Below are positions 11,740 through 62,050 of a DNA stretch of 64,000 nt, piece after piece; position 1 is the stretch's first letter; each line of letters starts with the position of its first letter. Position numbers and translations under genes: made by a program. The notes beneath the pieces are model-generated. The model worked only from the letters and a program-made list of their open reading frames with translations. It had not been told where the DNA came from and made no database searches. Location: assembly GCA_028534125.1 (NCBI GenBank), contig CM052816.1, positions 21,516,001-21,580,000 of the forward strand, given 5' to 3'. This DNA is from Lama glama (lineage: Eukaryota).

Positions 11740-11815
11740 TCAGAATGAAGTTACTAGAACTTTGGGATTTTCTTCTTTCTCCATGGAATCTTTTGTTTTT
11801 TTCCCAAACCTGAAC
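11740..11815 (-). CDS. SLC22A4: SLC22A4 exon 10, coding part to the ancestral stop
   Basis: Acceptor TTCAG|GTTCAG; reads FRFGKKTKDSMEKEENPKVLVTSF followed by TGA; 76 bp. Confidence 0.94.
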
Positions 11816-12358: not shown

Positions 12359-13640
12359 TGTCATAGAAAGATATTTGATTTTTCCCCCTAGTTCCTGACT
12401 CAGAGCTCGTAAATCTCTTGTGATGTCCTGAGTGACAAGCGTAACAGGAGCGCTTTGCCTCTTATTCTAATGAGGCAGCTCTTGTCCCTAGATAGCTTCA
12501 CGAGGAAAGCTGGTCTCCAGAAAGACCAATCCTTGACTAGAAGCCTGGAATTTTCAGCCCACGCACCAACCTCCAGGGAGGGGAGAGGGCTGAAGCTGAA
12601 TTAATAATTGATCATGCCTATGTGATGAAACTTCCAGAAACCCCCCAAAACACTAGGGCTCTGAGAGCTTCCAAATTGGCAAACATATCCATGTGCCAGG
12701 ATGGTGATGCTTCCCAACTCCTCAGGACAGAGGCTCCTGTGCTCTGGACCCTTCTGAACCTCACCCTGTACTCTTCTTCATCTGGCTGTTCATTTGTATT
12801 TATAACAAATGGGTAACAGTAAGTAAAATGTTTTCCTGAGTTCTGTGAGTCATTCTAGCAAATTCCTGAACTTGAAGACAAGGGTTGTGGAGACACTGGT
12901 CTTTGTACTCAAGATGGACACGTTGGGGCTCAGGGCAGGTTGCCCCCAAATATGCTACAGGGCATATCGATTAATTTTTATTGAAGTTGCTTGTGAAGCA
13001 GCCAATGCAAAAAGGAAACTCTGGCCTCCTCTGCAACCCTGAAAGCAAGAAATAAATCTCTCCTCTCATGTGAAAGGTGCACTTCCTGCATCTGGATGTA
13101 GGGGTTCACACTTACTACCAGAGAGAGACAGGGAATTCAGGGCTGGACCAAGATGTCTGTATAAACAAACGTTGTTATTTCTTTACAAATTTACTACCCA
13201 AGCTCAAACTTTGCTTAAATTCCTTACTAATTAAGCACCCAAACCTAAGTTTCTTTGTCCTGTCAATCCCTCTCAAATTTATTGTTTGTGTGAAAGGTGT
13301 AAACGCTGCCTTCTTTGGCCACTTCTTAGGTCCTATTTCTGTGAAATTTCCATGAACATTAATCAAAATTTATTTCTTTTTCTCCTGTTAATCTGATTTG
13401 TATCATTTTATTATTAGTCTAGCCATAAGAATGCAAGAGAGGTAGGGCATAAATTTCCACCTCCCTGACAGTCAAAAGTGTGGATAACCTTGGGGACCCA
13501 TTACTTGCAACTGGAGTGTGAAGAGAGGGCTGTCTCACGGGATTGAGACTTGAACCTATGATGCTAACTTGGGTAGTTAGTGTCACAACTGAATTAACTT
13601 ATAGGACACATAGTTGGTGTCAGAATTGCTCGAGGTCAGG
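12359..13640 (+). mobile_element. MER21-like LTR split by a nested LTR
   Basis: MER21-like sequence at 12359-12920 resumes at 13471 (aaagtgtggataaccttggggaccc...ttggtgtcagaa). Confidence 0.7.
12921..13470 (+). mobile_element. MER34-like ERV1 solo LTR nested in the MER21-like LTR
   Basis: Begins (c)gttggggctcag...ccccaaatatg and ends ...ctccctgaca; imperfect 4-bp flanks gaca/gtca. Confidence 0.65.
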
Positions 13641-13679
13641 AGGAAAAACCCTCGCACAATCTCACAGACCAAAAGGTGG

Positions 13680-14425
13680 ATGAGTATTTCTTTTTCATGT
13701 ATATGTTTTCCACTGAAATTGCCTTTTCTATAAAACTGCTTGCTCATGACCTTTGCTAGCTTTCCTAGAGTTCTCAGTTTGTCTTTTTTCCACTCGTTGC
13801 TAAGAGCTTCTTGTGTATTAAGTTTATTAACCCTATGTCTATAGTGTGTGTTGCAAATATCGTTCCCCTGGTTTGTCAACCTTTGCCCTAATTGACTGTT
13901 TCATTTTTGTTGCACCAACAATTTCTAAAATTGCATAATCAGATATATTAATCTTTTCCTTTATGGCTCTTTACTTTTTATATCATGCTCAGAATGGCCT
14001 TCTTTAAGGATATGAAAATGTTTATGTTTTCTTCTGGTACATTTATGATTTTACAAGTTTAGGTCTTAATTTTTAATCTTTCTGGAATTTATCTTGATAT
14101 ATTTTGAAGTAGGATTCAAGATTTTATTTAGCCAAAATAATTAGCTGAATTTTCTATCATCCTGTACTGAGTAATCTAACTTTTCTCCACTGACTTTGAA
14201 TTGCTACTTTTCATCATACACTGAATTCTCATATTTTCTTTGGTTTAATTCTGAACTCTATTCTATTGCAGTGATTTATTTTCCTATAACATTATCACAT
14301 TGATTAATATGCTTTATTTACTGTTAGAGCTCCTCTCCCCTTATTACTCTTCCTTTTCAGAACCTTCCTAGCTATTCTTGCATGTTTATTCTTTCTGAGG
14401 AATTCTGGTATCATTTTTTAAGTTT
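13680..14425 (-). mobile_element. Old L1 remnant in intron 9
   Basis: Diverged antisense L1 ORF2-end sequence. Confidence 0.6.
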
Positions 14426-14432
14426 CACTTAC

Positions 14433-14567
14433 CCTTTCACTTTCTGCATCTGCTCAAGGTCTCTGGTAGAGTCATTCCAAAACTTTCAGGGAAAAAAAGG
14501 GTGATGATTCCAATCAGGACAGTCAGGCTTCCCATGAGGATGTAGGGCAGAACTCTGTTGTAAGCAC
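14433..14567 (-). pseudogene. SLC22A4: SLC22A4 exon 9 with a 1-bp deletion
   Basis: Acceptor TACAG|GTGCT; reads [36 protein letters not shown], then TT- GAG CAG ATG CAG AAA GTG AAA; donor AGG|GTAAGT. 135 bp instead of 136. Confidence 0.93.
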
Positions 14568-15759: not shown

Positions 15760-16690
15760 AGATGGATAAATTTGATTATATAAAAACTAAAATTTCCTGC
15801 ACTGCAAAAAATGTCATAAAGTCAAAATGTAGATGATAAACTAGGAAAAATATTTACAATATATATACAAAGGGCTAATATTTTTCAATTACAAAGAGCT
15901 CCCACAAATCAAAAATAAAAAGTTGAATAAACCATTAGAAAGATGAGCAAAAGACATGAACAGTCAGATCTCTTAAAAATAAATAGAATGTCAATAAATA
16001 CATGAAAAATCTCTCAGTCTCATTCATAACTGAAGAAAAGGAAATGAAAGCAACAATGATACCATTTTTCACATAGCAGATTATCAATGATTAAACAACT
16101 GGATAATCCTCAATGTTGCTGAGGATGTGGAGAAACAGGCACTTTTATATATTTTATAGTTAGATTGTGAATTGGTACAATATCTAGAGGTCAATTTTGC
16201 AATATCTATGAAATTTTTAAATTGCTCCAGCAATTCATGGATCCAAATGTACAAAGGGTATGAGGGCATAGGGAATTGTTTATTGCAGTGTTATCTGTAA
16301 TAACAAACCTGAAAATGGCCAACTGTCTATTCATGGGCCTACTTAAATAAATTATTTATATACATACATACATTTAAAGTCTATGTACTAACTAAAAAAA
16401 AAGGTAAAAGGGCTATATATACCAATATGGAAAGACATCCTGATACACTGTTAATTTTTTAAAAAAATTGTGAAAGAATATTTATAATATAATTTTTTGT
16501 GTGTTTAAAAACATACATATACATATATATATGGAGGAAAAAAACATCTGAAGGGCCACTCACCAAATCGTTAATATTAGTTTCTTCTAGAGCTGTGATT
16601 TGGGGAACTGAGAGAAAAGAGGTAACTTGTACTTTTTCCAGTACTTTCTATGCTGTTTGTATTTTTCACAAGGGAAATCTATTACTTTTA
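15760..16690 (+). mobile_element. Old L1 (L1ME-like) 3' region in intron 8
   Basis: A-rich sense L1 sequence (aatgttgctgaggatgtggagaaacaggcac). Confidence 0.7.
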
Positions 16691-16729
16691 TATTTTTAAA
16701 AAAGAACAGACTGATAAGATGCATCTCAC

Positions 16730-16912
16730 AAAGGTAAACAAAGTAGGGAGCAATGATGCTGCCCACTCTGGAGGCCATGGACGTGATCCCCACAGCCTTG
16801 TTCCTGACCAGGGTTGGGTAGAGCTCTGCAGTGAAGACATACAGCATGGAGAAGGCAGAGGTGATCCCGAATTTTCCTAACATGGCCAGACCAATGGACA
16901 AGAAGTTGTAAT
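16730..16912 (-). CDS. SLC22A4: SLC22A4 exon 8 (frame open, last base T)
   Basis: Acceptor GCCAG|ATTAC; reads (D)[60 protein letters not shown]; donor TTT|GTGAGA; 183 bp. Confidence 0.94.
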
Positions 16913-17750: not shown

Positions 17751-17965
17751 CTGCAGGTACCAATTGAATTAAGAGAAGCACACCTCCTGCAAAAAGCAGT
17801 ACTCCAGCTATGACATAACACCTGGACAGGGTTTGAAGTAGCAGCCAGGCTGTAACGTAAGCTGGAACTTCAATCAAGGCAGAGAAGAAACAGTTCAGGT
17901 AGGCATCGCCATGTAAATTAGGAGTGTTGAGAGACAGAGCAAAGTAACCCACCGAGGTTAGCATC
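17751..17965 (-). CDS. SLC22A4: SLC22A4 exon 7 (frame open)
   Basis: Acceptor TTCAG|GATG; reads [71 protein letters not shown]; donor CAG|GTAAGA; 215 bp. Confidence 0.95.
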
Positions 17966-18059
17966 CTGAAAGTCAAGAGAAAAAAGACAAAAATGACAAA
18001 AGAATGACTTGAATTACTTCACAGTTTCATGATGATCAAGAAATTGTCTAGATCCTCCT

Positions 18060-18262
18060 GCCTTACAAGCAGACACTAGCCACAAATAGCTATTTAAAAG
18101 TAAATAAATTAAAATTAAATAAAATTGTAAGTTCCATTCCTCAGTGTGGCACTAGCCATACTTCAATTGCTTAGTAGCCACATGTGGCTAATAGTTACTA
18201 TGACGGACAATACAGATATAGAACATTTTCATCAATGCAGAAAGTTTTATTGGACAGCTCTA
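18060..18262 (-). mobile_element. MER3-like hAT-Charlie element
   Basis: tagccacatgtggcta palindrome; terminus cagaaagttttattggacagc. Confidence 0.8.
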
Positions 18263-18422
18263 GTCTAGATATGCCAATGTTCAACAATACCTCTCCTAGT
18301 CTAGTTAATTTCAAGTTTCAATATTTCCTGAAGAGTGTACATTCTCATTCCTGCAGAGCTATTATTTGAAGAAGGAGTGTTGGTCACATCAGTGAACATA
18401 AAACCTGTATTTCATTCTTACC

Positions 18423-18487
18423 AAGAAGAAGAAGGAGAAGGGGAAGAAGGAGGAGGAAGAGAAGGAAGAGAAGGAGAAGCAGCAGCA
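18423..18487. repeat. Purine-rich (GAA/GGA)n low-complexity tract
   Basis: aagaagaagaaggagaagggg...gaaggagaagcagcagc. Confidence 0.85.
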
Positions 18488-19631
18488 TAGGTAATACTGT
18501 GGGATCCACTTACAGTAAATTCCAACTGATTTAGTAAAACTCATTTTAGGGAAAAAAGAGAAAGCCCCATATTGCTTCAAAGTATCACAGAGTGCATATT
18601 TCCATATCCTGTCTTTATAGTTAACTTCCATGTAAAAGCTTCTCTGTGGAAGAAAAACCATACTATGCAGAAATTTGCTTATTATTAACATGACTGAAAA
18701 GCAGAGGGCTTCTGAAAAATGTTTTCAGGAACACTGTTGGATCTTTTTATACATACTCTACTAGGTTGGATAGCACAAGAGCTAATCTAAAACAATTTTT
18801 AAAAACTGAAGCTTTAATTGCTCTAGGTGATTTTCACATTAGGTAATGAGAGTAGCCTAGATAAAACTAGTGACTAGTTTATTACTGGCTCAGTAGTGCC
18901 ACTACTTGAGATACATTTCCATCAATGATATATGCTGACATGTAAGAACTAAGGAGGTCTATTTTGAGGAAAGCCATATGCCTAGGACACACTTGCTTAA
19001 TTCAGAGGCATAAACTCTGTCATTGACTTCTTCTAATTGCAGAACAGGATGGCCCTAAAAATAGACAAGCTGCAGTCTGGACCTACTCTTTTTAGTGCTG
19101 CCATCATGGGGTAGGCATGTTCTTTTTTCCTTCTTCCTCATTTCTTGGCAGATACATTATTAAATCTAGTCTACAAAGTCAATTCAGTATTTCTATGCCT
19201 TAAAATCCACTTGGTAGATGGCTATTAGCAAGTATTAAAAGATTGTCAAAACTCCAATCCAGGCACTGGGGATTCAAGTTATTCCAGCCTTACTCATCAG
19301 TTGCCAGTACAGCTTCAGGAAACAGGAGCTGAATTAGCATCTTGGCTTCAGGCACCAGGGACCTCATAAATCTTAATCCCAGGAACCTTGGGAGGGATGG
19401 GGAACCCTTTCCCTGTGGGTCACAGTATTGCAGACTTAAATACTGTCCCTTGTGACTTTTTTTTTTCAGTAACCAGTTCCATGAATTAAATTGAGGCCTT
19501 CCCAAATAACTTAGAATTTTAAAATTTTAGTTTCATCTCAGGAAGACCTAGGCCTTGCCCTGATCATCCCTTGAATTAAAGAAAATTAGCTGTATATTTA
19601 CATGTAAAATCAAAAAACTAAATCTATTTAA

Positions 19632-19855
19632 TCAAATGAATCTATATACAAAACAGAAACAGACTCACAGACATAGGAAACAAACTTAAGGTTACCAAAG
19701 GGGAAAGGGAGGGTAAGGGGAAAATTGGGAGTATGGGATTACTAGATACAAACTACTATACATAAATATGCAGCAAGGATTTACTGTATAGCACAGGGAA
19801 CTATACACCTGAAAGTAACAGACCATTATAAATCAACTATACTTCAATAAAAACA
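19632..19855 (+). mobile_element. Short young L1 3' end (artiodactyl type)
   Basis: caaatgaatctatatacaaaacagaaacagactcacagacatag...ctgtatagcacagggaactata...aatcaactatacttcaataaaaa. Confidence 0.85.
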
Positions 19856-20259
19856 ATTGGAACTAAAAAGTTACAAGGCTCTGAGGTGGGGAATCTCTCC
19901 AGGATAAAATCTCTCTGTGGCCCTATGATGTGTGTGCAGTAAGAGGTTGAGGAAGGAATTTCTACTAAGAAGGAAGTAAGACTGCCAGACCTCATTATAG
20001 CAGGTGCTCCCCAGATATTAGCATCCTTCTTTCCAGAAAAAATCAGACACCTCCTCATGCAGCTTACAGCCATATGACCTTTTGGCTTTTGTACCACTTG
20101 GAGTATACAGCTCTAGAGCACGCCCCCGAAGCATAACCCTGTTATCACAACAAAGCAAAGCTCCTATGAAACTACTGGGAACTAGCAGTCCTCCTGGAGA
20201 GCTCTGGGGGTGGTGCCAGGCACAGACAGGATCATGCTAACGCTTGATGCTTCCACAGG

Positions 20260-20388
20260 ACTTGTGAAAAATGCAGATTGCCAGGTCCCACCATGGGCCT
20301 GCTTCATCTGAATCTTTCCTGGAGCCCGGCCTGGGAATCTGGATGTTTAAAGGGATGACTGTGATAAGCATCCAGGTTTGGAAACCTG
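20260..20388. mobile_element. MER5-like DNA transposon fragment
   Basis: cttgtgaaaaatgcagattgccagg...ggcctgggaatctggatgtttaa. Confidence 0.6.
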
Positions 20389-22084
20389 AGAACAAGAACA
20401 TTCTTGTATCCACTGCTTGTTTGTCTCTGGCCTGTACAGAGCCACTAAAATGCCTTTGGACCAGGCTGAAGGTGCTTCAGAAGAGAAGCCAGAGAAGCTC
20501 AACATCTCCTTCCAAGCTGATACTACTCCATATTTTTTCCTGTTCAAATTAATGCCACTGCCCCTTACATGAGATAAGAAAACACAGCTTTTAAGAGCAC
20601 ACACTTTGGCACCAGAGAGACTTCGGAAAAGCACAAGCTCCCTTTCCCTCCACAGGCTCATCTAGTTGACACTCGATGTGCCTCGCGGCAGGAAGAAACC
20701 AGGCGTGCTGTCACAAGCGAATTTTCACACTGGCCTTTATTTTTACTTGTCTGTAACTATTTATCTCTTCTATATTTTATTCTTGCTTTCATCCATGTAG
20801 GTCTGATCTTTAATACTAGACTATAAGTTCCTCAGAACAAGAGTCAGACCACATATCCACTAAATATCAACAAACACCCAGGACAGCTCTGAGATGCACA
20901 AGTGTTAGACACTCCCAATGTTATTTTTGTATCTAGTCAAACTGACAAAGGCTGGGAATGGAATTCTTGATCTGAAGAGCAAAGCATTAAGATATATTTG
21001 CCCTGGCAGCCCTTTGAGAGCTTGGGTTCATGGCCACTGTAATTAATCCTCCGGTCATCACCAAGGTATCTGCTCCTGTCAAAGGCCACAAAGACCAGGG
21101 ATGGAGGAAGCCCTCAGGGTAAGGCACTGGCATGCCTGCCTCCCTTCACAGAGTCCTGCTTTCTGGGGTGGCCTGGAGCACAGATGTGAGCATGGGGAAA
21201 GCAAGCAGACTAAGAAGCATATGGTCTTGATGGGGTTTCCTGAGCAGCCCCCCACCCTTCTCCTAGCCAAGAGTGCCCTGCCCCACCCTCTCCATCCATC
21301 TGTGTGTCCTCCCTGGTTTGGACTCTTCAGCCCTGAGTCACTCTGCTCGCTTTCTCTGCTGGATCACAGTGTCCACTCACTGGGTACTTCCTCCCTCATG
21401 TCATCCTTTATCTTCCATCGAAACCTCTTGACACTCAGTTACATTCTCTGCTCCTTAAGCACAGAAACTATGTCTAATTTTTCTTGTTTTCTCTAGGAGT
21501 TGGCACGGGGCATGGCTGAGGACACTGTGAGTCCTCACTGACTGTCAGGAAGTGCATCTGCTTCCATAGGATACCAGCTGTTTTCTCGTGGCCTCCTGCC
21601 TGCAGGGGTGAATCCTCCAGCCTGAGCTCTCAGGCATCAACATGACACAGCAGGACTAAAGACATGGCACAACTTCCTCAGCAGGCTTTGGTAAGATTCA
21701 GGGGACAGTGGGGAACCCGTGGGTGGAATACCCCTCAAACACATTTTTCCCACTTAAACTGGACATTTGAAAAACAGCTGTATGTATCTGCATCAATGGT
21801 ATGGAGCAAGACCAACAAAAAGTTGAAGATAAGCTTGCAAAAGGGAAAGGAACTAGTATTTAATCAACACTTGTTCTTTGCTAAGCAGTTTACATATATT
21901 ATTGCACTTACTTGGCCCACGGCCCTTTGAGGTAGATTTTATCTCAGAACTTCATCATTATTGTGTCTCTAAGGCCTTGAACAATGCCTGGTACATAGTG
22001 GGCACCCAAAACATAGAGTCAAATTAAAGTCCATGATCAAGAATGCATAGATGATTTCAAGAGGAAACATCTACAAAGGCTTAC

Positions 22085-22210
22085 CTCCACAGGATCAAAA
22101 ACCATGACTGGGACAGCTACGTTGTTCACTTTTGCAGCTTTTTGGATGGTATCTTCAGCTTCTTTAAATCTTCTCTGGGATATCAGCCACCGGGGAGATC
22201 AGGAATAAAC
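22085..22210 (-). pseudogene. SLC22A4: SLC22A4 exon 5 with a 1-bp deletion in the PESPRWL motif
   Basis: Acceptor TTTAG|G TTT ATT CCT GA- TCT CCC CGG TGG CTG; continues [33 protein letters not shown] in the shifted frame; donor GAG|GTAAGC. 126 bp instead of 127. Confidence 0.93.
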
Positions 22211-23450: not shown

Positions 23451-24686
23451 ATTAGCAGTTTTACCCCACAACCACCGTATACTGCAATGGGCACTTCTGC
23501 TTCTGAGAGATATCTTTACCCAACCAGGTTGTTCTTAGAAATATCCTACCTTTCTTACTAGGGGCTCTCAGGGCCATCACTGGCCTCAGGTTCCTAATAC
23601 TTAGTCAGCTAGATATTGCAGAGCTTTTCCCATGTTGCACCTGTGGGCTCCTTCCCCACCCATTACGCACATACTCCATTCATACCTAGCCACTTATTGC
23701 CAAGCCTTTTAAGGGAATGTGGGACATAAAAAATCCCCAGACTACCTACAGTAGCTCTGTGTAGGTTCCTGCCCACTGTACTCAGGGTTGCTGCCATCTC
23801 TACTTTTGAACTGCCACGGTTTTTTGGTGCATGAAGAATCAAGTCTAGCTGATCATTTCAAGTTAGTGGAGGGCCAAATGAGGTTGTACACTCTAGCCTC
23901 TTCATAGATTTAATCCAGATTGAACAGGGGAAGGGTATTGCTGGAGAATTCACATCACATATCGAGTAGGCAGCAGGGATCACAGTAGTCCAAAGCACTT
24001 CCCACATCATCCCAGCCCACCCAGACGGATAAGCATTGCTTCAGAAAGTACCACCATCAAGGACAAGACATTCAAAAGAAAGCTATTTTGTTTTTATAGG
24101 AAAATGATAAGACAGTTGTTAAACTTTCAGGGCAAGCACCCAGCTTATTTGTCCTGGCCCCGGGCTGCCTTCTGTCTGGGGCAGTCCTGTCCCTGGTACA
24201 GAGTGCCCACAGCCAGGAGCACTCATGAACCAGCCCGTGGGCAACAGAAGGGAGAACACTCCTCAGGGCAAGAGTAAGGCAGCTCCTTGTGGGATGGACC
24301 TTCTTTGCTAGAAACTCAAGGGGCTGGCCTAGCAGAGCTGTTCCTTGCAGTGATGTTTGGTTCTGAGGCAAAGAACCAAGTCCCAGAAATTAAAACCCCT
24401 ATTAGTCTCTTATGGCCAATCAGGGCCCTTTTATTTTTGTACTCTCTCTCTCTCTCTCTGATAGAATCATACACTAATAAGGTTGATTATAACATTTTCA
24501 AAGTACTTATCTCTTATGCCAAAATGACAGCTAGAGCCAGGGAACACAGATTATTAAAAGCTTTCATCTGAAGAGGCAGAAAGTAACCTTTGAATAATAT
24601 TGTCTTATGTCTTGAGAGACCCTATGGTCACCAACATCTTTTACAATAAATTCAGTTAGCAAGGGGGTTGTGGAGAGATGGAGGGT

Positions 24687-24717
24687 GTGATGATGGTGAT
24701 GATGATGATGGTGATGA
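24687..24717. repeat. (GAT/GGT)n trinucleotide microsatellite
   Basis: tgatgatggtgatgatgatgatggtgatga. Confidence 0.85.
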
Positions 24718-25946
24718 CTCTCATTCCAGAAAACTTCCCTGCTCGCAGACTGGGTCAGGAACTCAAAATCGTATCTACCCCCTAACACACTACCTCTCAA
24801 ATTCTAGGGAAGTAAGAAAAAATTTCTCTCTCTCCCCCATGCACACCCATGCCAAGAATCTGCACTGGTTAAACCACAGCAGTCTTAGAGGCACCCAAAG
24901 GACAGTGGTTCGGAGTGGTCTAACTTGAGCCACGTGATCCAACAAGGCCAGGAAGTACTACCTGTCAGCCTCTACGGCTGCCTGACAGTTGCAGCAAGAT
25001 GAAGGCCCTGCTGGGAAATCTCCTAAGGCAGTGTGACCACACGACGGGGCAACCACGAGGGCTAATGAGTTCCAAAAAATGACCATTGTGTGTAAGCAGG
25101 TAGAGATGAAGCAGTTCAGCAAAAAACAGTCACTGCTGGGAGATTTGACTATGATATCATGAGACCAAACCAAGACTAATTAATAAGAGAGAGAGAGAGA
25201 GAGTGCCAGACCCACCAATGGAAAAATAATGCCCTTTCCTCTTGCTTAAATATGAAAAAAAACAAAAAAATGGGGAATTCCCCCAAAAAGAGGGTATGGC
25301 TAAGGACTTTATTCCATTATTCTTAATCTTTTCTCTCACTTGAAATTTCCCACTTAATCACACTGGGTGAAAATGGGGCCAGTATCTCAACACTTTGTTA
25401 TTCCTACACTGCTGTGTCAAAATTGGGCTGGAGGGTTGTAGGGGGAGAGAAGAAAACATTTCTCCAACAACTCTTTAAACAAAAGCAATTCTCTCCCCCT
25501 TCAAGACAAAGCAGATAAACAGGCACATCTTAGATGCTAATCATCACATGATAGGGATGCTTGAAGAAGCTACATTAGTTGAAACCATAAGGAGAAAGAG
25601 GTTTGCTAGAGAGAGAAAAGTGTCAAAAGAGCAGGGCGGGGGCAAAATTAAAAACAACCAAGCCCACAGTATCATCTCCACAAACAACAACCAGCAGTAA
25701 CAGACAAGAATGGGGAGAGCCTGAGTGGGAACTGGGTTTCCTGAGAACCGAGCTTTGTGGGCCGGTGGAGAATCACACCCCAGCATGCGGGCTCCCCCCA
25801 CCACAACGAGGCAAATGGTCTCTGGGCTTCGAGGTCGCAGCTCACTGCAGTGAGATCAGCAAACCCATGCTAGGATCAGCACCAGGCTCTCGGCTCCAGG
25901 CTGCTGGCCTGCAGCAGGGGGCTGTCTGGGATGGAGCCTCACTCAT

Positions 25947-26117
25947 CACCACAGCGGGACACACAGCACCCTGGCACCATCAGCACCAGCAGCAGCATCC
26001 ACCAGTCTCTGATGAAGTAAGCAAACAGTGGCAGCAGCATGTAGCCAAATGCATAAAATATGCACACTCCTAACGTAGAGAATATAATACGAACTGACTT
26101 GCCAAGAATTTCTGCTC
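25947..26117 (-). pseudogene. SLC22A4: SLC22A4 exon 4 with a 1-bp deletion and a mutated donor
   Basis: Reads (G)[48 protein letters not shown], then CCA GG- GTG CTG TGT GTC CCG CTG TGG TG. 171 bp instead of 172. Followed by ATGAGT rather than GTGAGT. Confidence 0.93.
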
Positions 26118-29100
26118 CTGTTCAAAACAAGGGAGGAGTATTAGCATTTTAACTCATTTTAATATTTGCTTTTCACATCATTACCTGGCAGGCAGAGTTC
26201 AAAATACAACCATGTAGGAAAGGGAAGAGGTGTTTGTTTTATGGCCTCTGCAGAGCAGGAGCAGTCAGGGTGGAGAAAGGTGGGAAATGACCCAAGACTT
26301 ATCACCTAGAGAAGCATGAGTTTTGTGAGATTTTAAAGGAATCATAGATTTTTATTTTTTTAAGGCCACCTCATGTCATAGAAACATCATGTCCAGCCCC
26401 AGGAGGTAATCTCTTCAGAGAATGTCATATTTCCAAAGTAAGAGCCCCGAGGTAAGTAACAGAAAGGGTGTCCCAGGAGATGTGGCGGCTCTTCCAAGGG
26501 CTGCATGCGTGGTGGTGCATTCAGCCCTTCCCACAATTCTCCACTGTAAGTAAGCAGACTCCAGTCTCTTGGGAAACAATGGAGCGTTCAGTTAGTGAGT
26601 CGGGTTAGGACACACTTAGCCATCTTCAGCCCTGGGAAACAATAAAGGGGAGCCAGCTGGCTCTGGAGGAGCAGGGAGCAGGTCCCTGGCACCTAGGGCT
26701 GAATTCTGCTGCAGCAACACTGTGCCCAGGGATCAACCCCAGGCGGACACAGCCCATGCAGACCAAGGGAAGACAAGAAAGACCTGCTCTACTGGCCAGG
26801 CTGGCGACAGCCCTAGAGCTGGCCACACACTTTGGGGCTCACAGAGCTTTCCCACACCACCACAAAGGCCCAAGACTGTTCGGTGTCCCGCCCTGTTTTG
26901 GGAAAGACTCCTGCTCTGCTCAGCACCACAGTGGGTGGTTTAGCTCCAGTTCTTCCAGAGACATTGCCTGCCCCTTGGGGCACTTGGTTTGAGACAGGGA
27001 GTCCAAGAACAAGCTCCTTTTGTTGTCACAGAGCTCCAGGCCCTTTCCAGAGTTTACTCTTGGTCCTCTGCCCTGGGGTGGAGATTTGGCCAATGGCAAT
27101 GGCTCCATCTTTTGAGATCTGCCCATCACTATAGAGAAATAGCCCAGAAAATACAAAACAGACCATTCAAAGGTCATTCAGGCTTGGCTTTCCACAGAAA
27201 TTTTCTCAATTGTGTTTATATGCCCTGAGCACAGGCTAAGGAATTAAGGGCTAATTCCAGAGCAGCAGTAAAATCACTACTTTGGCTGGTGTCTCTTTCT
27301 CGCCACCTGTTCCTGTCCCCACCTCTCTTCTTTCTCATTCAGCATAACTGAAGATGTGCCTCAGTGTTTTCCTCTTGAACTGCCGTTTCTAAAAGCTGGA
27401 CTGATAGAAAAGGCTAGTACTGTGTACTCCTTGCATCCCAGACTGCAGAGAGTAGCCTTAATCACACAGGGCATTTCTCAGCCTCTAAATTCACTTCCAG
27501 GGATAGGGCCAGACTTCTTTGAGGATCGTGAGTGTTATTTCCAGATCTTTTCTTACCTCATTAATGACCTTCCTACCACTTCATAGGAAGACTCACCATG
27601 CCATATGGGAATGATATGGGAATGAATAGGGGGTGATTTATTCCTAAGCAGAGATTCAGAAGGGAAGCAGCAGAGGATGTGACTATGGAAAAGAGAAAGT
27701 GTACAGGACCAAGTGAAAATCTTGTAGACTCATGAGGCCAAGGAGCTCCCTTAAACTTCCATGCCCCTGATAAGAGAAGAGAGAGAAGTTACACCACTGG
27801 ATTCCTGGATACTCTCCCTCTCTAAGCTTGGATCTCAGGCCAGAACAGAGCTGTTCTAACTTTGCAGAGTACTCACAGGGACAGAAGAATTATTAAATAA
27901 ATCTACCCTGCCTCTGCCCTTCTGTGGAGCAACACGAATGGCACAAACCTGAATAATCCCTTGTTAGCACAACTTTACACTCTGACTTCTAGACAGTCAC
28001 CTTTCCTTGAAGATCATCATCACCATCATCATCATCTTCTTCATAGCTAGCATTTTTTTTTGAGCAGGCCCTTTGAGCCAGGTTCCAAGCTAAGTGTTTA
28101 TGTATATTATCTCTTTGAGTCTTCACAATAATTACATAAGAACTAATATTGCTTCTATCTTACACATCATCAGCTGAGACTTACAGAGTTGAAGCTAATT
28201 GCCTAAATTCACAGCCAGGATTTTAGCCTGATCTGTTTGGCCTGTGGATACCATCCAGAAAAGAATCACCTGGGGTCAAAGCCTTGGCCCTATCAAGCAG
28301 TCCTTCAACTGAGGCTCCATTGGAGACATGTGTGGGAGATGGGTGAGGCCATACTTGCTTTTTAGAAGTTAGGATTTGCATTTTCTCTGCCTGGGCTGGT
28401 CTCTGAGCCAACTAGCCCCCTCAGAGGGACACTGGCAGAGGAGTCCTGATTCCTGCAGACTTCTCACGGCCTCCAGGTACCACAGATTTTCCATGTGCTT
28501 AGCTGGCAGTGAGATGGGTTACAGTGGTGACTTCTGGCTCTGCTGACTGGGGATCCCTGTCCTGGCCTCCTTTACCGCCTAGGTTTCTGCTCCTAGGGCA
28601 AAGCCCACTTGGTCTTGGTCTGGTTGGGCCTCTGAGTGGTCACTTAGGAGTGAGACTCCGACAACTAAGCCAGAGGGACATGGCCTGCAGGAGTGTTTGC
28701 CCACAAACTGTCACCACCACTCGAATCTGAGCACTCTCTCCAAGAGGGCGTGACTGAGAAAGGGCCAGGCTTACTTCCACGTTGATCAGGGCCGTTCTGT
28801 GGTGGTCAGCCCAGGAACCACTGGGTCCTTTCCACATGAGGCAGGACCTGCCCTTCCATAAGTGACCAACAGAGACCTGTAAACCCCTGCTCAAGAAACC
28901 AGGATGTGGAGCAGGACCCAGGGACCCCTGGGACGGGAGTGCCCTCTACTAGGTATATGCAGGGAGCATTGACGCTCGTGTGACTTTGACAGGTCCTACT
29001 TCATGGAGCTATTATTGTAAGGACTGAGATAATGCAGGTAAAGGGCCTGGGTGAGTGTCTGGTATGTGGTAGGTACTTAGGAATAATTCTGTTATCCCAG

Positions 29101-29639: not shown

Positions 29640-30268
29640 GTATCATTTTGGAAAACATTCTAGCAGTTCCTTAAATGGTTAAACATAAAATTCCCATATG
29701 ACCCATCAATTCCTCTTGGAAAACAGCCTGGCAGATCTTTAAATGGTTAAACATAAAATTCCCATATGACCCAGCAAGGTACATATCCAAGAGAACTGAA
29801 AACATAGATCCACAAAAAAACCTTGTATTCAAATGTTGATAACAACATTCTTCATAATAGCCAAAGAGTGGAAACAACCTAGATGTCTATCAACAGATGA
29901 AGAGATGAACAAAATGTGGTTATCTCCTACAATGGAATATTGATTAAATGCTACAGCATGGACCAACCTTAAAAACATTAAGCGAAAGTAGTCAGTCACA
30001 AAAGCCACATACTGTATGATTCCATTTATCTGAAATATCTGGAATAGACAAATCCACACAGATAGAAAGTAGATTAGTGGCTGCCAGGGACTTGGGAAAA
30101 AGGAGAAGGGGGAGTGACTGGTAAAAGGGTTCCTCTTAGGGGTGATGAATATTTTCTGGAGTTAGAGTTTTTGGTTGTACAACTTTGCGAATATACTAGA
30201 AACCACTGAATTATACTCTTTTAAAGAGGTAATATTATGGTTTGCAAGTTCTATCTCAATTTAAAAAC
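29640..30268 (+). mobile_element. L1MB-like 3' end carrying an internal 68-bp tandem duplication
   Basis: ttcataatagccaaagagtggaaacaacctagatgtctatcaacagatg...tatctcaatttaaaaa. Confidence 0.85.
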
Positions 30269-31205: not shown

Positions 31206-31705
31206 NNNNNNNNNNNNNNNNNNNNNNNNNNNNNNNNNNNNNNNNNNNNNNNNNNNNNNNNNNNNNNNNNNNNNNNNNNNNNNNNNNNNNNNNNNNNNNN
31301 NNNNNNNNNNNNNNNNNNNNNNNNNNNNNNNNNNNNNNNNNNNNNNNNNNNNNNNNNNNNNNNNNNNNNNNNNNNNNNNNNNNNNNNNNNNNNNNNNNNN
31401 NNNNNNNNNNNNNNNNNNNNNNNNNNNNNNNNNNNNNNNNNNNNNNNNNNNNNNNNNNNNNNNNNNNNNNNNNNNNNNNNNNNNNNNNNNNNNNNNNNNN
31501 NNNNNNNNNNNNNNNNNNNNNNNNNNNNNNNNNNNNNNNNNNNNNNNNNNNNNNNNNNNNNNNNNNNNNNNNNNNNNNNNNNNNNNNNNNNNNNNNNNNN
31601 NNNNNNNNNNNNNNNNNNNNNNNNNNNNNNNNNNNNNNNNNNNNNNNNNNNNNNNNNNNNNNNNNNNNNNNNNNNNNNNNNNNNNNNNNNNNNNNNNNNN
31701 NNNNN
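31206..31705. other. Assembly gap (500 N)
   Basis: Run of N in intron 3, flanked by identical 125-bp sequences. Confidence 0.99.
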
Positions 31706-33906: not shown

Positions 33907-34061
33907 CTAGTATGAAGGCCACCACATAGTTGGAGATCTGGCCCATGCCGACGATGACAAATAATACGGTGAACATCTCCCAGTTAATGGAAAAAATCTG
34001 CAGGAAGCTGAAGCCAGTCTGCACAGCCATGGTTATGAAGAGGATGGTCTTCCTGCCAAAC
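33907..34061 (-). CDS. SLC22A4: SLC22A4 exon 3 (frame open)
   Basis: Acceptor TACAG|GTTTGG; reads [51 protein letters not shown]; donor TAG|GTAAGG; 155 bp. Confidence 0.96.
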
Positions 34062-35397: not shown

Positions 35398-35501
35398 CTG
35401 TCTGACAGCTGCCCGGACATAAAGGACCCGAGGAGCACGCCTACGAAGAACAGGGAGATGGTGAGCTGCGTCTTCCAATCATCCTCACACGCCAGATTCC
35501 A
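35398..35501 (-). CDS. SLC22A4: SLC22A4 exon 2 (frame open)
   Basis: Acceptor GACAG|TGGAAT; reads [34 protein letters not shown](R); donor CAG|GTAAGG; 104 bp. Confidence 0.96.
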
Positions 35502-48420: not shown

Positions 48421-50539
48421 GTATCCCCTTTTATAGACAAGGAGACTGAGGCACTGAGCAATGATGTAACCTGCTAAAGTCATCCCACTGGTTAAAGACA
48501 GGGTCAGAAGTGGCCCTCTGGTCTGACTCCAGAACTCCTCCTTGTGCCATCGCCTCTCTGGGGAGAACCACCCCACCCTACCCACTTTCAAGCTACTCCT
48601 TTCCTTCCTCCCAACTACTAGTGCCCCTTTGCCTTTTATTTTACTCCTAGCACCCAAAAAGGAAGCCAGGAAGTGAAAGACTGCTGGAAAAAGCAAGTCC
48701 TGGTGTGTATGTGTGAGAGTGTGATGATGTGCCTCCCCAGAGGTACCCACAGGCCCCTGTGAAGAGCACAACAGGGATAGCTATGTACTTGTAAGCCAGG
48801 AGCTACCCACCCCTCACACCTTGAAGTGAACAAAACAAGCAAGAAAGGGGAAAGAGACAAGTCAGCCCAGCTGTCAAGGAGGGCTGCAGCCAGTAGGGCC
48901 AGCTCCAGCTCAGGTGCTGACGACACTTCCAGGACCAGAGGATGGGCAAGCACTAGGAGCCCCTGCTAGGAGATCAAAGCCAGAGAAGCACGGCCACCTC
49001 AGGGACCAGGGTCAGCATAGTGCCAATGCTGAGGGGAATCAAGAGGTGCTCCACATACTGAGTCCACTTTCCACAGTTCCTATTGACTCCACAGCCACTG
49101 CTCTTACCTGGCCACCAGTCTCCTGCCAAAACAATTCCCACAGCTTCCTCACTGGTCTTCTTGTTTTTCATAGCAGTGAGAGTGAGTTCTTACTCAAAAC
49201 ACAAATCTGGCCATGTTACCTCTTCCTTTGAACCCTTACTATTTCCTCACTGTCTTCAGAATAATGTCAACTCTTCAACATTCTTACAAGGCCATTGTGA
49301 AGATACCCCTGCAGACATTTCTAGCCTCACCTGCCATTCCTTGAGTTCCAGGCCATCTTGATCTATGAAATCCCATCCCCAGAATCTGCCATGTTCTTTG
49401 CCTGGTCACATTTCCAGACTCAGCTCAAATTTTAACACCTCTTCTTAAGAGTATTTCCTCACCCTGCTATCTCCACAGAAAAGGTAATTTTTGCCCCAGG
49501 TCACACAGTAAGCCTGTCAGGATTTGAATTCAGGTTCCTGAACCCTGTTCCTAACCAGGTATGATGTTAGCTGACTCTAACATGGCCAGTGTGCCCTGTG
49601 GGCATCTGAGCTTTGAAAGCACAAGGCCAGGCATGGTATCCTATTACTGTCCCACTGTGCTGAGGAAAGGAGATAGAAGACTAGCAGACACTATGCTCAG
49701 GTTTTCACATAGAGCAGAGGAGAGGCCAGAAGCTGGGAAATTCTACATGCCTGATTTAACAGCAGAAAACGAGTCTATGAGGGTAACCTCTTCAGAAGAT
49801 GTGTGCTGATCGAGCATCTCCTGGTCCTTATCAAATGCAAAATAGGAAATGCAGAGGACAAAGTATGTCTATATCTTGACTCTTGAAACTTAGAAATCCT
49901 GCCACTAAACCATGTCGGATGGAAGGGAGTAATGGCATAAGCTGGAGCCCTTGTCCACCTCTAGGCCCTGTGCTCAGATGGTCTCTGTGAGTCTGTCTCT
50001 TCATGAGTGCCTTGAGGTCAGGGTTTCCTGCACTTTGCCAGTATCAGGAGGTTCTCTGCTCCTTTCTAGAGAAATTGGAGCCTCAGGACAGGACCCAAGC
50101 CTCACCATAGAGAATGACAGAGCAGGAGACCCTCTGATGCTTCCAGAAGTCTGTGGGCAGGGAACAGGCCAGATCTGCCAAAGCCCTGCCCAGCAGCAGG
50201 GCTCTTCTTTGTGTCTGCATGTGGGCTCAGCAGCAGCCCCCACACCTTTCCTCAAGCCTGTGGCAGGAACTTGACTCAGGCTGTACATCTGGGGAGCCTG
50301 GGGCCGGTGGTGTCTAGACTCTTGGGAAACAACTTGGTCTGTTGTGAAACTGTCAAAGGAAAAGGCAGATGACAACGGCCTCCTTTCTTTCTTCTCCGTC
50401 CCCTTCATATTAGACAGAACAATTAGGAATGAGCCTAGGTGAGTTCTGCTCTCTCTGGCTGCACAACCCTGTCGTGCGTCAGCCAGGTTTGATGAAGAGT
50501 CGGGGACGCTGATCCAGGCATTGCCAGGGAGTCTAGGCG

Positions 50540-51760
50540 GGGAACTGATACAGATGAAGGGTCGCTCATACACTCACCTCAGTCACAATGGTGGACAAGT
50601 AGACGTCCTGGCTGAACTCCCAGCCATCCAGGCAGCTCTTCTGCTCCAGCTGCTCCAAGTCCACGTCGCGCCCCGGCTCCAGCCCGAGCGCCAAGAAGTT
50701 GACGATCGTCGCGAGGCGGTAGCGGCGGCAGCCGTGAGGCACCTCGCGGCCGTCCTGCAGCCGCAGCGGGAGACTGTGGTTGCGCCAAGCGAGGCTCAGG
50801 TTCGCGGTGTCCGGCACCCGGCAGCGGTGCTCCGGGGTCCCCGCCAGGAACACTACTGGCATACCGTTGAAGCCGTTGGGGATGATGCTGGCGCTGAGCA
50901 GGAGGAAGATGAGGCGCTGGAAGGGCCCCCACTCGCCCAGGAAGGCGGTCACCTCGTCGTAGTCCCGCATGCTTCCCGCTGCTGCTCTGCAGTCTGCAAC
51001 AACGGGCGATAAGGGCGTCCCTCGGACAAGCGTCGCGCGGCGAGGGCGCTCCCCGAGGCCGTCAGAACGTTCTCGCGGGCCAGGCAGGCTGAGGGAAAGT
51101 GGAGCGCGCCGCCAGGGACCGTTCCCGGGAAGCGGGCTGCGGGCGTTGGTGAGTTCCTAGGAAATGGTCGCAAAGCTGGAAGGCACGGTATAAATTCGGG
51201 ACCACACCTCCATCCTGGCCGGGGCGGGGAGGGTGGGGCGGCCGGGACGGCCGAGGTGGGGCCCGGAGCGGCTCCCCCCGCGCTCCGCCCGCCGCCCCGG
51301 GCGACCCCGCGGTAGACCCGGCTGAGGCCTGGAGCTCAGGTGGGCCGCCCAGCTCCCGCGCACCCCGCGTGCCCCGCGACCGCCAGCTGCTGAGCGCCCA
51401 GCTCCGAGCCGCCGCGTTGGGCACCACGGGGGCGAGCGGGCGAAAGGGAAGAGCTGAGGCGGGAGAGCAAAGTCTTTGAGAGGTCGGGCCGCGGCCCTCT
51501 CTGTTGGCGTCGCCCAGGCCTCATCCGGGCGGGAGGCTCTCCCTTGCCACTTCTAACCCGGAGTCTGAGCTCAGAGGGCCTCGCGCGAGGCGTGGACGGC
51601 CGAGCCCGTGCCGTTGGTGCTCCCGGGAAACTTCTGTGGGCACAGGGGTGGCAGGAGCACACCATCTCTTCTGGCACACCGCTGCCCGAGTGGCCGGCAC
51701 CAGCCGACCCGGCCCTCGCCTCCGCCCCCATCCCCCACCCCACTTCTCCAATCCTAGAGG
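50540..51760. promoter_or_regulatory. CpG island and GC-rich promoter of SLC22A4
   Basis: Very high GC and CpG density over exon 1 and upstream. GC boxes (GGGGCGGG at about 51221, GGGGCGG at about 51235) and a RUNX-type ACCACA at 51201-51206. Confidence 0.88.
50578..50970 (-). CDS. SLC22A4: SLC22A4 coding exon 1 (frame open, 131 codons)
   Basis: [22 protein letters not shown]...[19 protein letters not shown]; 393 bp; donor GAG|GTGAGT at 50577. Confidence 0.97.
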
Positions 51761-54301
51761 GCTGGATTCAGTTACCAGCCTGCGGAGCCCAAATTGGCAT
51801 CTTCCGGACATCCAGGAGCCTCACCTCGAAAAGGGGGAAAGGGCCCAGTGCCCAGAAGGGATGAGCGAGATCACACTGCGTCAGAGATAGGCTGGGAGCC
51901 AGGGGCTACCGGGTCGTCCCAGGATCTTGTTGGGGCCTCTCGAGAAGATTTAATACGGAGCCTGGCCCTTTGTAAGACCGCGGTAATGGGAGCACCTCTT
52001 ACTGCTTTCACCACCCTGGGCTCTGATTTTGATCCCCCAGGGCTCTTCATCGGGGCTGGCTGCCAGAGTCTTCTTGGACTGGAAGGCGTCTGATTTGCGG
52101 AAGGGACCGCCCCACCCCGCCCTCTGCCCCAGTCCAGGAACGGAGGGGGGGGGGGGACGGAGGAGGAGAAGGTCCAGCTTGGCACCCAGATCTGGCAAGG
52201 TAACCAGAGTAGGGACCAGTCCGCTCAGTGTCCAAGCCTAAGACTCCTTTCCAGTCGGATTTTTCACCTGGGGCAAGTACCTCATTCCTTTCATTTGCCT
52301 CAGGTTTTTCCCAACCCTCATTACTATGGGTGACTGAGATTCCCACTTGGACCTTCTAAAGAGTCATACAGAATGAAGCAGCGTCTGTTTCCTAGTTCTG
52401 GTTCCATTGGTCAACTCCCCTGCAGTCCCAGGCTGCATATGTGTGAGCCAAACAGGTACCACTCAACTGAATTGTTTGCTACCACCCAAGAAATCCTTAC
52501 CTTTTATTTATCCAAGGTAAATCCATACCTTGAACCATTTAGCCTTCCATATGAAATGAATGCCCAAGTACACTGCTTACAGCTGGACCCCGGGAGGCTT
52601 TCTATTCACCAGTGTCCTTCAGTGCCACTGCTAAGTGGGGCTGTGTTGCAGTAAGAATCCATTTTTTGGCTTGTATCTTCTGTGAGACAGGGCTGAGTAT
52701 TTTTCCCCCTATCAATTGGTTATAGAGAACTACCCTCATAAGACCACAGGTCTGAGTTGGGGGCGAAGTGTTGATATAGCTGAGATAGGTGTCATAGGAG
52801 TCTGAATCACCAGTTCATTAACTTAAGCTGTATGGACCTGCTCAGTCCTGATCCTGACACTACCATTTCTATTATATGATGGATTGCTGACATGCCTGCT
52901 TAATCTTATGACTTGATAGAATCTGGCAATACCTAGCTTTTACTGGACATTTCTAGTTGCCTAGACCCTTGATATCCCATGGCCAGGCACTCAATTTTTA
53001 CTGTAGCCATGTAGTTGCTTTTCAAATGGCAAATAGCTCTCTGCTACAGAAGGCATGACCTTGTTATGGAGATCTGTACTGAAACTCTTTTATTAGGGCC
53101 TATCTCTTTTATCAGAGGCTCTACTCTGCATTCTTATCACCATGAACATCTCTAGCACCATGGATTCTGCTGGGTCATATGGACCAAATGGCAGGGAACC
53201 TTGTACTATAGTTGGACACACTGTAGAGCTCTCTCTGGGCTTCACTCAAAAGTGAGAGTTTTCTCAGGCACCCATTAAATGGGTTATAGTAGTATTCCCA
53301 CGAAGCACTATGTCTTTATTAGTGGTAGAGGGTACAGGGTACAACAACTTGCCTTTACCTTACAGAGGATGGCCTGGCATGTTCCAGACTACTGAATCTC
53401 TAATAACTTCACCAATTGGCTTCAAAATAATAAGGAATGAAAGAAGTGGGTGAGCATATAGATGAAATAAGATTGGCCATAGTAGTGGTCCTAGGGATTC
53501 ATTTTACTAGTTTGTCTACTTTTATATACATTTAACTCATTCCAGAACAAAAAGTTAAAAAAAAAAACAAACAAAACAAAAAAACATTTGTCAGCATGCA
53601 AGGCCCCGAATAATACTTTTTATCTCCTATCTTCTGTCATGGATGTGTCTTACTAGAACATCTGCTCACTAGGTTATGACATATTAGCATTATGTAATCG
53701 ATACAGTAAACCATCGTGATATTCTATGGAAAATCAAGACAATCAAAGTCACTAAACACTGTGATAGAGAGCAGAAGAATTAACGCAGCCCAGGGGCAAG
53801 GCAGTGAATATATACTGCTGTTCATCCCCACATAAAAACAAACTGTTTTGATCCTCCTTACTGAAGGATATTAAGAAGATAATCTTTGATGTTGCTGTTA
53901 ATCTCTGAAATTCCATTCAGGATGTCGTTTTACTTCTGATGTAATAAGTTGGTCAAAAACGTGGGTGTGTTAGAGGCTTCTGCTTGGCCCCTCCTGCCAT
54001 AATTGCTCTTATTTTATAGAACAGGGAGTAAATATTAGGGTCTTGCCAGCTGCTAAGTGTACCTAGTTATGTACTTAGGGAACAGGGAATGAGAGTGTGG
54101 ATCTTTAGACCCATTAGACTTCCTTGCAGGAGAATTCTGTTTACCAATTGGCTTTCACGAGCCCCTAGTATAACTAGGGGACCATAATGGTATTTCCCAT
54201 TCCCTGGTATCAGTGCCAATGCACAATCTGTATCCAACAGCCCTTGAAAGGTTTGCGTCTTTCCCTTTCCTTAGGCCAGAGTTACTCTAGTAAAAGTTCA
54301 C

Positions 54302-61298: not shown

Positions 61299-62050
61299 TG
61301 AGTGTGTAGAAGATGATGTCCAAGTCTCTGGTTTGAAGTCCTCTAAGGTGAAGACCTGTGAGAGGGACAGGTTTGGGGACAATAATGAGAGTTGGGTCTG
61401 GGCCGGTTGGGCTGGGATAGTAGAGCAGGCAGATAGCTAGATATGAGCAGAGAAGGGGGGACACATGCCAAATGGCAGGAATTGGGCAAAAAAGGTGGAG
61501 CATGGGCCAAATGCAGGAAACCATACATCATGTAAACAACAGAGATCCTTGGTCAGAGAAAAGCAGGAGCCTCTGGACTGATAAGAAATCACACATTTCA
61601 GGGTGACAGGTGTCCTGGTGGCCAACAAAGACGAGTGGGTAGAGGCAGGAATCTCCAGTGTCTGAATGTAACCTTTTGTTCATTATGCCTTCATTACAAT
61701 AAAATTAGCCTTCCAGATTAGAAGTACCCATCATGCACGAATGCTTAAGATACTTCCGATCCAGACTAAATAAGGACAAAAATCCCTTCTCCCCTCGGGA
61801 AGGTGGAGCTGGATGAAAATCAGGGAATACTTCAAACCCTTCCCTCCCTAATGAGTATTCCACCCATTTATTTTTACACCCTATATAACCAGCTTACAAA
61901 AGAAACTCGGCACAGCTGCTCACCTGAGCTGCCCGCTCTCGCCTTTAGAGCGTACTATCTATCCCTTAATAAATCCTCACTTTACTTTTTTAACCTGTCT
62001 CCTCTTAGAATTCTTTGTGCAAGGAGACTAGAACCTAATCCCTGGCAACA
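61299..62050 (+). mobile_element. Probable ERV solo LTR upstream of the gene
   Basis: TATA box (cctatataa at about 61880), AATAAA at about 61968, 3' end ...ctggcaaca. Candidate 5' TG at 61299 gives a 4-bp GGGG TSD; the 5' boundary is uncertain. Confidence 0.65.

Follow-up and report, generated by a model that had tools for sequence, protein, structure and literature searches.

Probable loss of the ergothioneine transporter gene SLC22A4 in a camelid genome, with a destroyed exon 4 splice donor

GULO and UOX in primates are unitary pseudogenes of vitamin or metabolite genes. Among camelids, PGLYRP4 has been lost in the Old World camels (PMC12127551). Slc22a4 knockout mice are viable, have no ergothioneine in tissues or red cells, and tolerate gut ischaemia and diabetic kidney stress less well than normal mice, according to PMC8776198 and PMC11200860, which also describe SLC22A15 as a second, weaker ergothioneine transporter. 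Reviews debate whether ergothioneine is a needed micronutrient (PMC9816654 and PMC13765261), and the high conservation of its transporter forms part of the case for it (PMC11200860); PMC8776198 holds that it cannot be called a vitamin.

The stretch of DNA considered here (the window, 64 kb in all) carries on its minus strand a gene identified by its sequence as the SLC22A4 orthologue of a camelid; SLC22A4 encodes OCTN1/ETT, which transports ergothioneine. Searches with tblastn and with exon profiles from named orthologues locate nine coding exons running from 50970 to 11741; in place of a ten-exon open frame of 551-553 codons there are nine exons and three frameshifts. The gene is non-processed, with introns and promoter island in place. 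In comparison with mammalian SLC22A4 (pig P0045, hippopotamus P0019, and grey whale P0016), exon order and phases are the same and identity is 76-92% per exon, but the window has lost the exon 4 donor, has three frameshifts and no exon 6, is changed at 15 invariant residues, and bears SLC22A5-type residues in exon 4. In comparison with alpaca SLC22A5 (P0024), exons 5, 7, 8, and 9 are only 56-69% identical, and the 3' exons are those of SLC22A4; an SLC22A5 model is present for all seven camelids in the table of PMC12127551. The reading preferred here, held with good confidence, is that SLC22A4 in the window is a unitary pseudogene that has been decaying for several million years. Its parts are as follows.

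50400..51800, no strand assigned: CpG island over the promoter and exon 1; GC 0.68, CpG observed/expected 0.82 (0.82-0.86)
50578..50970, minus strand: coding part of exon 1, 393 nt, ATG at 50970; frame open, within the CpG island, 4 invariant residues changed
35398..35501, minus strand: exon 2, 104 nt; splice sites intact; V135A, P143Q
33907..34061, minus strand: exon 3, 155 nt; intact
25947..26117, minus strand: exon 4, 171 nt, 1 nt short; R257W, A262V, T264M (CpG-type changes)
25969..25971, minus strand: G run with the 1-nt loss of exon 4 (frameshift), the loss lying near 25970
22085..22210, minus strand: exon 5, 126 nt, 1 nt short; splice sites intact; loss at 22200-22199 in the PES motif
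17966..22084, minus strand: single 4.1-kb intron from exon 5 to exon 7; exon 6 undetectable, no N gap here
17751..17965, minus strand: exon 7, 215 nt; frame open; P396S, R398C, G408A
16730..16912, minus strand: exon 8, 183 nt; M459K; last base T, donor weak
14433..14567, minus strand: exon 9, 135 nt, 1 nt short (lost near 14454); a new TGA follows at 14439-14437, with 4 nt of the exon left after it
11741..11815, minus strand: coding part of exon 10; normal stop kept

SLC22A4 is presumably to be expected between PDLIM4 and SLC22A5; no neighbouring gene was recognised in the ORF lists of the window. No Rfam family was found in the window, and Pfam searches with single exons gave matches for exon 8 alone, below the cut-off. 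The sole N gap is a 500-N assembly gap in intron 3 (31206-31705). Judged by eye, old interspersed-repeat fragments (L1-like and LTR-like) lie in intron 9 (12400-14400) and intron 8 (15770-16600), with another fragment at 19600-19870 in the intron between exons 5 and 7, and an LTR-like stretch on the plus strand (~61350-62050) has a TATA-like box at ~61884, AATAAA at ~61969, and a CA end at ~62050; two ORFs downstream of it have no Pfam hit. A 68-bp tandem duplication lies at 29648-29777. The CpG island stands at full strength over a seemingly dead gene, which may mean continued transcription or germ-line hypomethylation.

The assignment to SLC22A4 rests on the columns that separate it from SLC22A5 and on trees; exon 9 was left out of the diagnostic columns, as it was of the trees, the invariant-column count, and the splice-route computation given below. 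All 31 diagnostic columns of exons 3 (6/6), 7 (10/10), 8 (11/11), and 10 (4/4) are of the SLC22A4 type, as are 1/2 in exon 2, 1/3 in exon 5 (the remainder being of neither type), and 0/2 in exon 4. A FastTree phylogeny of exons 3, 5, 7, 8, and 10 places the window within cetartiodactyl SLC22A4 (pig, whales, hippopotamus, and ruminants) with support 0.968. Exon 1 is matched by a solved structure of human OCTN2 (chain 9pdq, E 1.9e-70).

Parts of the gene resemble the paralogue. Exon 4 is SLC22A5-type at I237, Y239, and F241 (CIFYAFGY, as in SLC22A5) and at both of its diagnostic columns, exon 2 carries the SLC22A5-type I146, and exon 1 is 92% identical to alpaca SLC22A5 (P0024) and groups with it (support 0.73). 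The exon 1 motif NLSLAW, with Leu60, occurs in 3 of 517 collected proteins, two of them alpaca SLC22A5 and the third a Bactrian SLC22A5-like protein; Leu60 thus appears private to camelids and common to both paralogues, which points to the camelid lineage. In several mammal groups, the exon 1 tree joins the SLC22A4 and SLC22A5 of one lineage with each other. Repeated gene conversion between the two would account for such clustering, and the window fits conversion from its neighbour. No description of SLC22A4/SLC22A5 gene conversion was found in the literature searched.

Exon 4 ends at 25947, with minus-strand 25955-25947 reading CTG TGG TG at its end; the boundary is fixed because the codon for Trp275 is split across it (TG/G, exon 5 starting AG/GTT at 22210). 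The Trp-Trp pair at this exon end is found in 237 of 239 collected homologues carrying the motif. The plus strand has T at 25946, so that the donor +1 base is A and intron 4 opens ATGAGT rather than GT, and minus-strand 25946-25937 (ATGAGTGAGG) retain the rest of the donor consensus. The original prediction that the canonical donor is destroyed agrees with the sequence, in which there is no GT at the junction, and with a U1 pairing energy of -3.4 kcal/mol; pairing was computed with what we take to be the U1 motif. The intact donors of exons 1, 2, 3, 5, and 7 pair at -9.6 to -12.7 kcal/mol, and restoring the consensus +1 base at exon 4 gives -10.0 kcal/mol. An AT-AC intron of the minor spliceosome was considered and rejected: U12-type AT-AC introns have ATATCCT at the 5' end and AC at the 3' end, and intron 4 starts ATGAGTGA and ends TTTTAG. 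The features at this junction are three.

25941..25946, minus strand: destroyed exon 4 donor ATGAGT, +1 A at 25946 (from sequence and U1 pairing)
25939..25941, minus strand: TGA met on retention of intron 4, codon 277, in the frame made by the exon 4 1-nt loss
25937..25942, minus strand: cryptic donor GTGAGG at +5; with the 4 nt that its use adds to exon 4, the frame lost through the 1-nt deletion is regained

The history given in the prediction, GTGAGT to ATGAGT, is in part observed (A at +1) and in part reconstructed, the ancestral G being deduced rather than read from orthologous DNA; when metagenome contigs were scanned for an orthologous exon 4, 588 pattern matches came up, none of them a relative. 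We infer that the ancestral +1 base was G and was lost by a G-to-A substitution. It is possible instead that 4 nt were inserted ahead of an ancestral GTGAGG donor, which would score -8.6 kcal/mol. The African wild dog SLC22A5 model P0093, which translates exon 4 out of frame and continues across the junction into intron 4 (GAVCSSLVVSF), has Val-Ser at the junction where the window has Met-Ser; this fits GTN AGY versus ATG AGT and favours the substitution over the insertion.

A G-to-A change at +1 would stop U1 from recognising the exon 4 donor, as judged from the sequence, the pairing energy, and the presumed ancestral base. For transcripts from the still CpG-rich promoter, this would leave three outcomes: retention of intron 4, skipping of exon 4, or splicing at a weak GT close by. 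The TGA at 25941-25939 to which read-through was predicted does lie in the shifted frame, at codon 277, but a stop there is only one of several possible outcomes. Ten splice routes were computed, and in nine of them translation stops at codons 220-290; of 42 nearby GTs, the 18 with the best scores, when joined to exon 5, lead to stops at codons 265-289. These nine routes would yield no more than the N-terminal half of the 12-helix transporter, cut off after the hydrophobic segment 259-277, and by established rules the stopped transcripts should be targets of nonsense-mediated decay. The GT at +5 (25942-25941, TGA/GTGAGG) pairs at -5.1 kcal/mol, the 24th strongest among 200 GTs in intron 4; its use, combined with the 1-nt loss in exon 4, amounts to +3 nt, and translation would then run on until the exon 5 frameshift brings a stop at codon 285, unless exon 5 is skipped.

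The tenth route combines the +5 GT with skipping of exon 5 and is open through exon 8, without residues 276-349. It would allow an internally deleted protein still to be made, the +5 donor cancelling the exon 4 frameshift, exon 5 being skipped, and exon 6 being gone. Besides the open route itself, this explanation draws on exon 4-to-7 isoforms annotated in four cetartiodactyls (P0005, P0012, P0085, and P0097), on the kept CpG island, on the position of all three indels within the 16% of coding bases compatible with the frame (0.004, for a zone defined post hoc), and on exon 9, where the frameshift only trims the tail and the stop lies 4 nt from the last junction, too close for decay. However, 13 of 14 damaging changes are in exons that would be retained, and the product would be without the central loop and half of the hydrophobic segment 341-359, its helix 6 ending CCVSRCGDE rather than VLCVPLWW. 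Both donors that it needs are weak (-5.1 kcal/mol for the cryptic site and -4.4 kcal/mol for exon 8) and the exon 5 splice sites are intact; by chance, one third of shifted donors restore the frame. We regard such a protein as very unlikely, and equally so the idea that the donor change was kept because the +5 site rescues the frame and gives a decay-resistant product without exons 5 and 6.

A unitary pseudogene, the preferred reading, is expected to carry lesions of more than one kind, and several kinds are present. Exons 4, 5, and 9 measure 171, 126, and 135 nt, compared with 172, 127, and 136 nt expected from the protein alignment and from the usual gene structure. Each of the three 1-nt losses lies in or beside a short run of one base, so the concern over homopolymer-type error behind the prediction was reasonable. 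Exon 6 (residues 318-349) has normal length in 223 of 223 collected proteins spanning exons 5 to 7; in 17966-22084, seven whole or partial exon 6 profiles score at most -1.7 bits, whereas seven controls of comparable length, built from exons 5 and 10, reach 12-38 bits, and over the whole window the best exon 6 score is 3.7 bits. The last base of exon 8 is T, whereas Gly482, present in 292 of 298 homologues, requires G, and the exon 8 donor, TTT/GTGAGA, is weakened (-4.4 kcal/mol); past exon 8 the frame stays open for ~47 codons into intron 8 (16587-16729). There are no nonsense codons in exons 1-4, 7, and 8, where 0.8 are expected (probability of none 0.44), which counts to that extent against the pseudogene reading. 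In a Rousettus model of 307 residues (P0025), exon 4 likewise finishes out of frame (GCCASRCGGLFLNLPGG), in a way that closely resembles the window.

The donor change had been put forward as independent support for real inactivation. It adds one more kind of lesion; alone it is no proof, since an error in the consensus or a rare allele could look the same. Stronger independent evidence is the missing exon 6 together with 15 single-base amino-acid changes at invariant columns. The window departs at 15 of 283 columns that are invariant in 43 orthologues, or at 14 if the SLC22A5-type F239Y is set aside; all 15 changes are single-base and 5 are CpG-type. When the orthologues are left out in turn, 42 of 43 show 0-3 departures. 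The exception, elephant P0142 (UniRef G3U621), has 14, almost all of them in exon 5, and was kept in the count; the beginning of its exon 5 is wrongly modelled, as three further elephant models (NCBI) are normal there. Constraint on the SLC22A4 protein therefore appears relaxed in the lineage of the window, as measured at the protein level rather than by dN/dS.

The 14 changes over 653 non-synonymous sites amount to 0.021 per site (0.012-0.036). At neutral rates of 2.5-1.5e-9 the loss would date to 9-14 Myr, or to 5.5-9 Myr from non-CpG changes alone, the full range being 2.5-24 Myr. In all likelihood the donor was hit, like many other sites, by a neutral mutation after constraint had ended, ~5-15 million years ago. 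Old and New World camelids split ~16.3 Ma (PMC12127551), and because the age estimate stands as it does against this date, the loss may or may not be common to both. That all living camelids lost the transporter before the split, and live with almost no red-cell or tissue ergothioneine despite the oxidative stress of high altitude and desert, is put forward tentatively, with somewhat less than even confidence.

Sequencing runs bear on whether the gene is broken in the lineage or only in this assembly, through consensus errors or through a null haplotype of one animal or species, with other camelids intact. Two runs carry 0.99 of 304 sampled words from 24500-27500, so consensus errors in this interval are few, and three error indels in ~1.5 kb would then have a probability of ~0.01-0.04. 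At least 0.96 of the words are held by 14 of 24 runs listed, from 5 organism labels and 6 studies; 12 of the 14 are marked as possible sources and cannot all be the source, and the other two, X13 and X14, hold 0.96. Word sharing bounds the error rate and is no test of base 25946, because one variant removes ~3 of the 304 words (both exon 4 lesions together, ~5.6). RNA runs X15-X17 hold 0.20-0.24 of the words from 24500-27500 and X18-X21 less, which gives no evidence of expression. A break confined to this assembly or animal would explain why the three 1-nt losses adjoin short single-base runs, but the missing exon and the 14-15 invariant-residue substitutions are not run-length errors and take millions of years. 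Together with the runs just described, this makes it quite improbable that the break is so confined. In favour of intact genes elsewhere, RefSeq has models from four camelid annotations in the SLC22A4 orthogroup.

That orthogroup was taken to be SLC22A4 from its accessions, some of them derived by offset. Its row in Data S1 of PMC12127551 has alpaca, Bactrian (two), dromedary, and wild camel RefSeq models beside pig XM_021077199, cattle NM_001206989, and human XM_011543589; the other New World species received their model by transfer from alpaca. According to the methods of the same paper, RefSeq may correct inactivating changes in its models, which weakens the case for intact genes, and the camelid SLC22A4 entries may be corrected models of a broken gene. 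None of the 517 collected proteins contains X; the protein collection seems to omit corrected models, so that corrected camelid models would be invisible there. Among the homologue matches and cluster members listed there is no camelid SLC22A4 protein, the best whole-exon-1 identity being 92%; as 15 of 137 members are listed for the largest SLC22A4 cluster, this absence weighs little.

The same models could instead belong to a working SLC22A4 elsewhere in the genome, the gene in the window being a dead duplicate, and the alpaca, dromedary, and wild camel accessions do fall outside the series of their syntenic neighbours. The gene here nevertheless has its introns and its promoter island, and the homologue matches include no close camelid SLC22A4 protein. 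Moreover, one Bactrian accession falls between two that we take to be those of MEIKIN and CCNI2, the expected place. A dead duplicate is in our judgement very improbable.

With loss of the single SLC22A4 gene as the preferred reading, this is probably a new, unreported loss of an ergothioneine transporter; the event is of a known kind and a splice lesion alone is ordinary, so the value of the destroyed donor lies in its being part of the SLC22A4 loss. The screen in PMC12127551 covered only losses specific to Old World camels, and it would for that reason miss a shared or New World loss. No report of camelid SLC22A4 loss was found in the literature searched; the larger tables of PMC7498332 and PMC7671337, bioRxiv supplements, or TOGA may list it. 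SLC22A4 and OCTN1 are absent by name from six supplementary files of PMC12127551 and from one supplementary file each of PMC7498332 and PMC7671337, and the accessible part of PMC4633038 does not mention camel or alpaca.

If the loss is real, camelids may be natural knockouts for the ergothioneine transporter, and a long-lived mammal family would offer a test of living without ergothioneine versus other uptake, by SLC22A15 or SLC22A5. Their red cells and tissues are predicted to contain little or no ergothioneine, beyond what SLC22A15 takes up weakly. The loss would also matter for the veterinary use of drugs that are OCTN1 substrates and for the supplementing of camelid semen or embryo media with ergothioneine.

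The losses of GULO, UOX, and PGLYRP4 are alike in that a single-copy, conserved gene carries several inactivating lesions in one lineage; the gene in the window differs in encoding a transporter of a dietary antioxidant, and its loss is seen here in one genome. The Slc22a4 knockout mouse is alike in predicted outcome, a viable animal with no tissue or red-cell ergothioneine, whereas the camelid loss would be natural and old, in a long-lived large herbivore whose phenotype is predicted.
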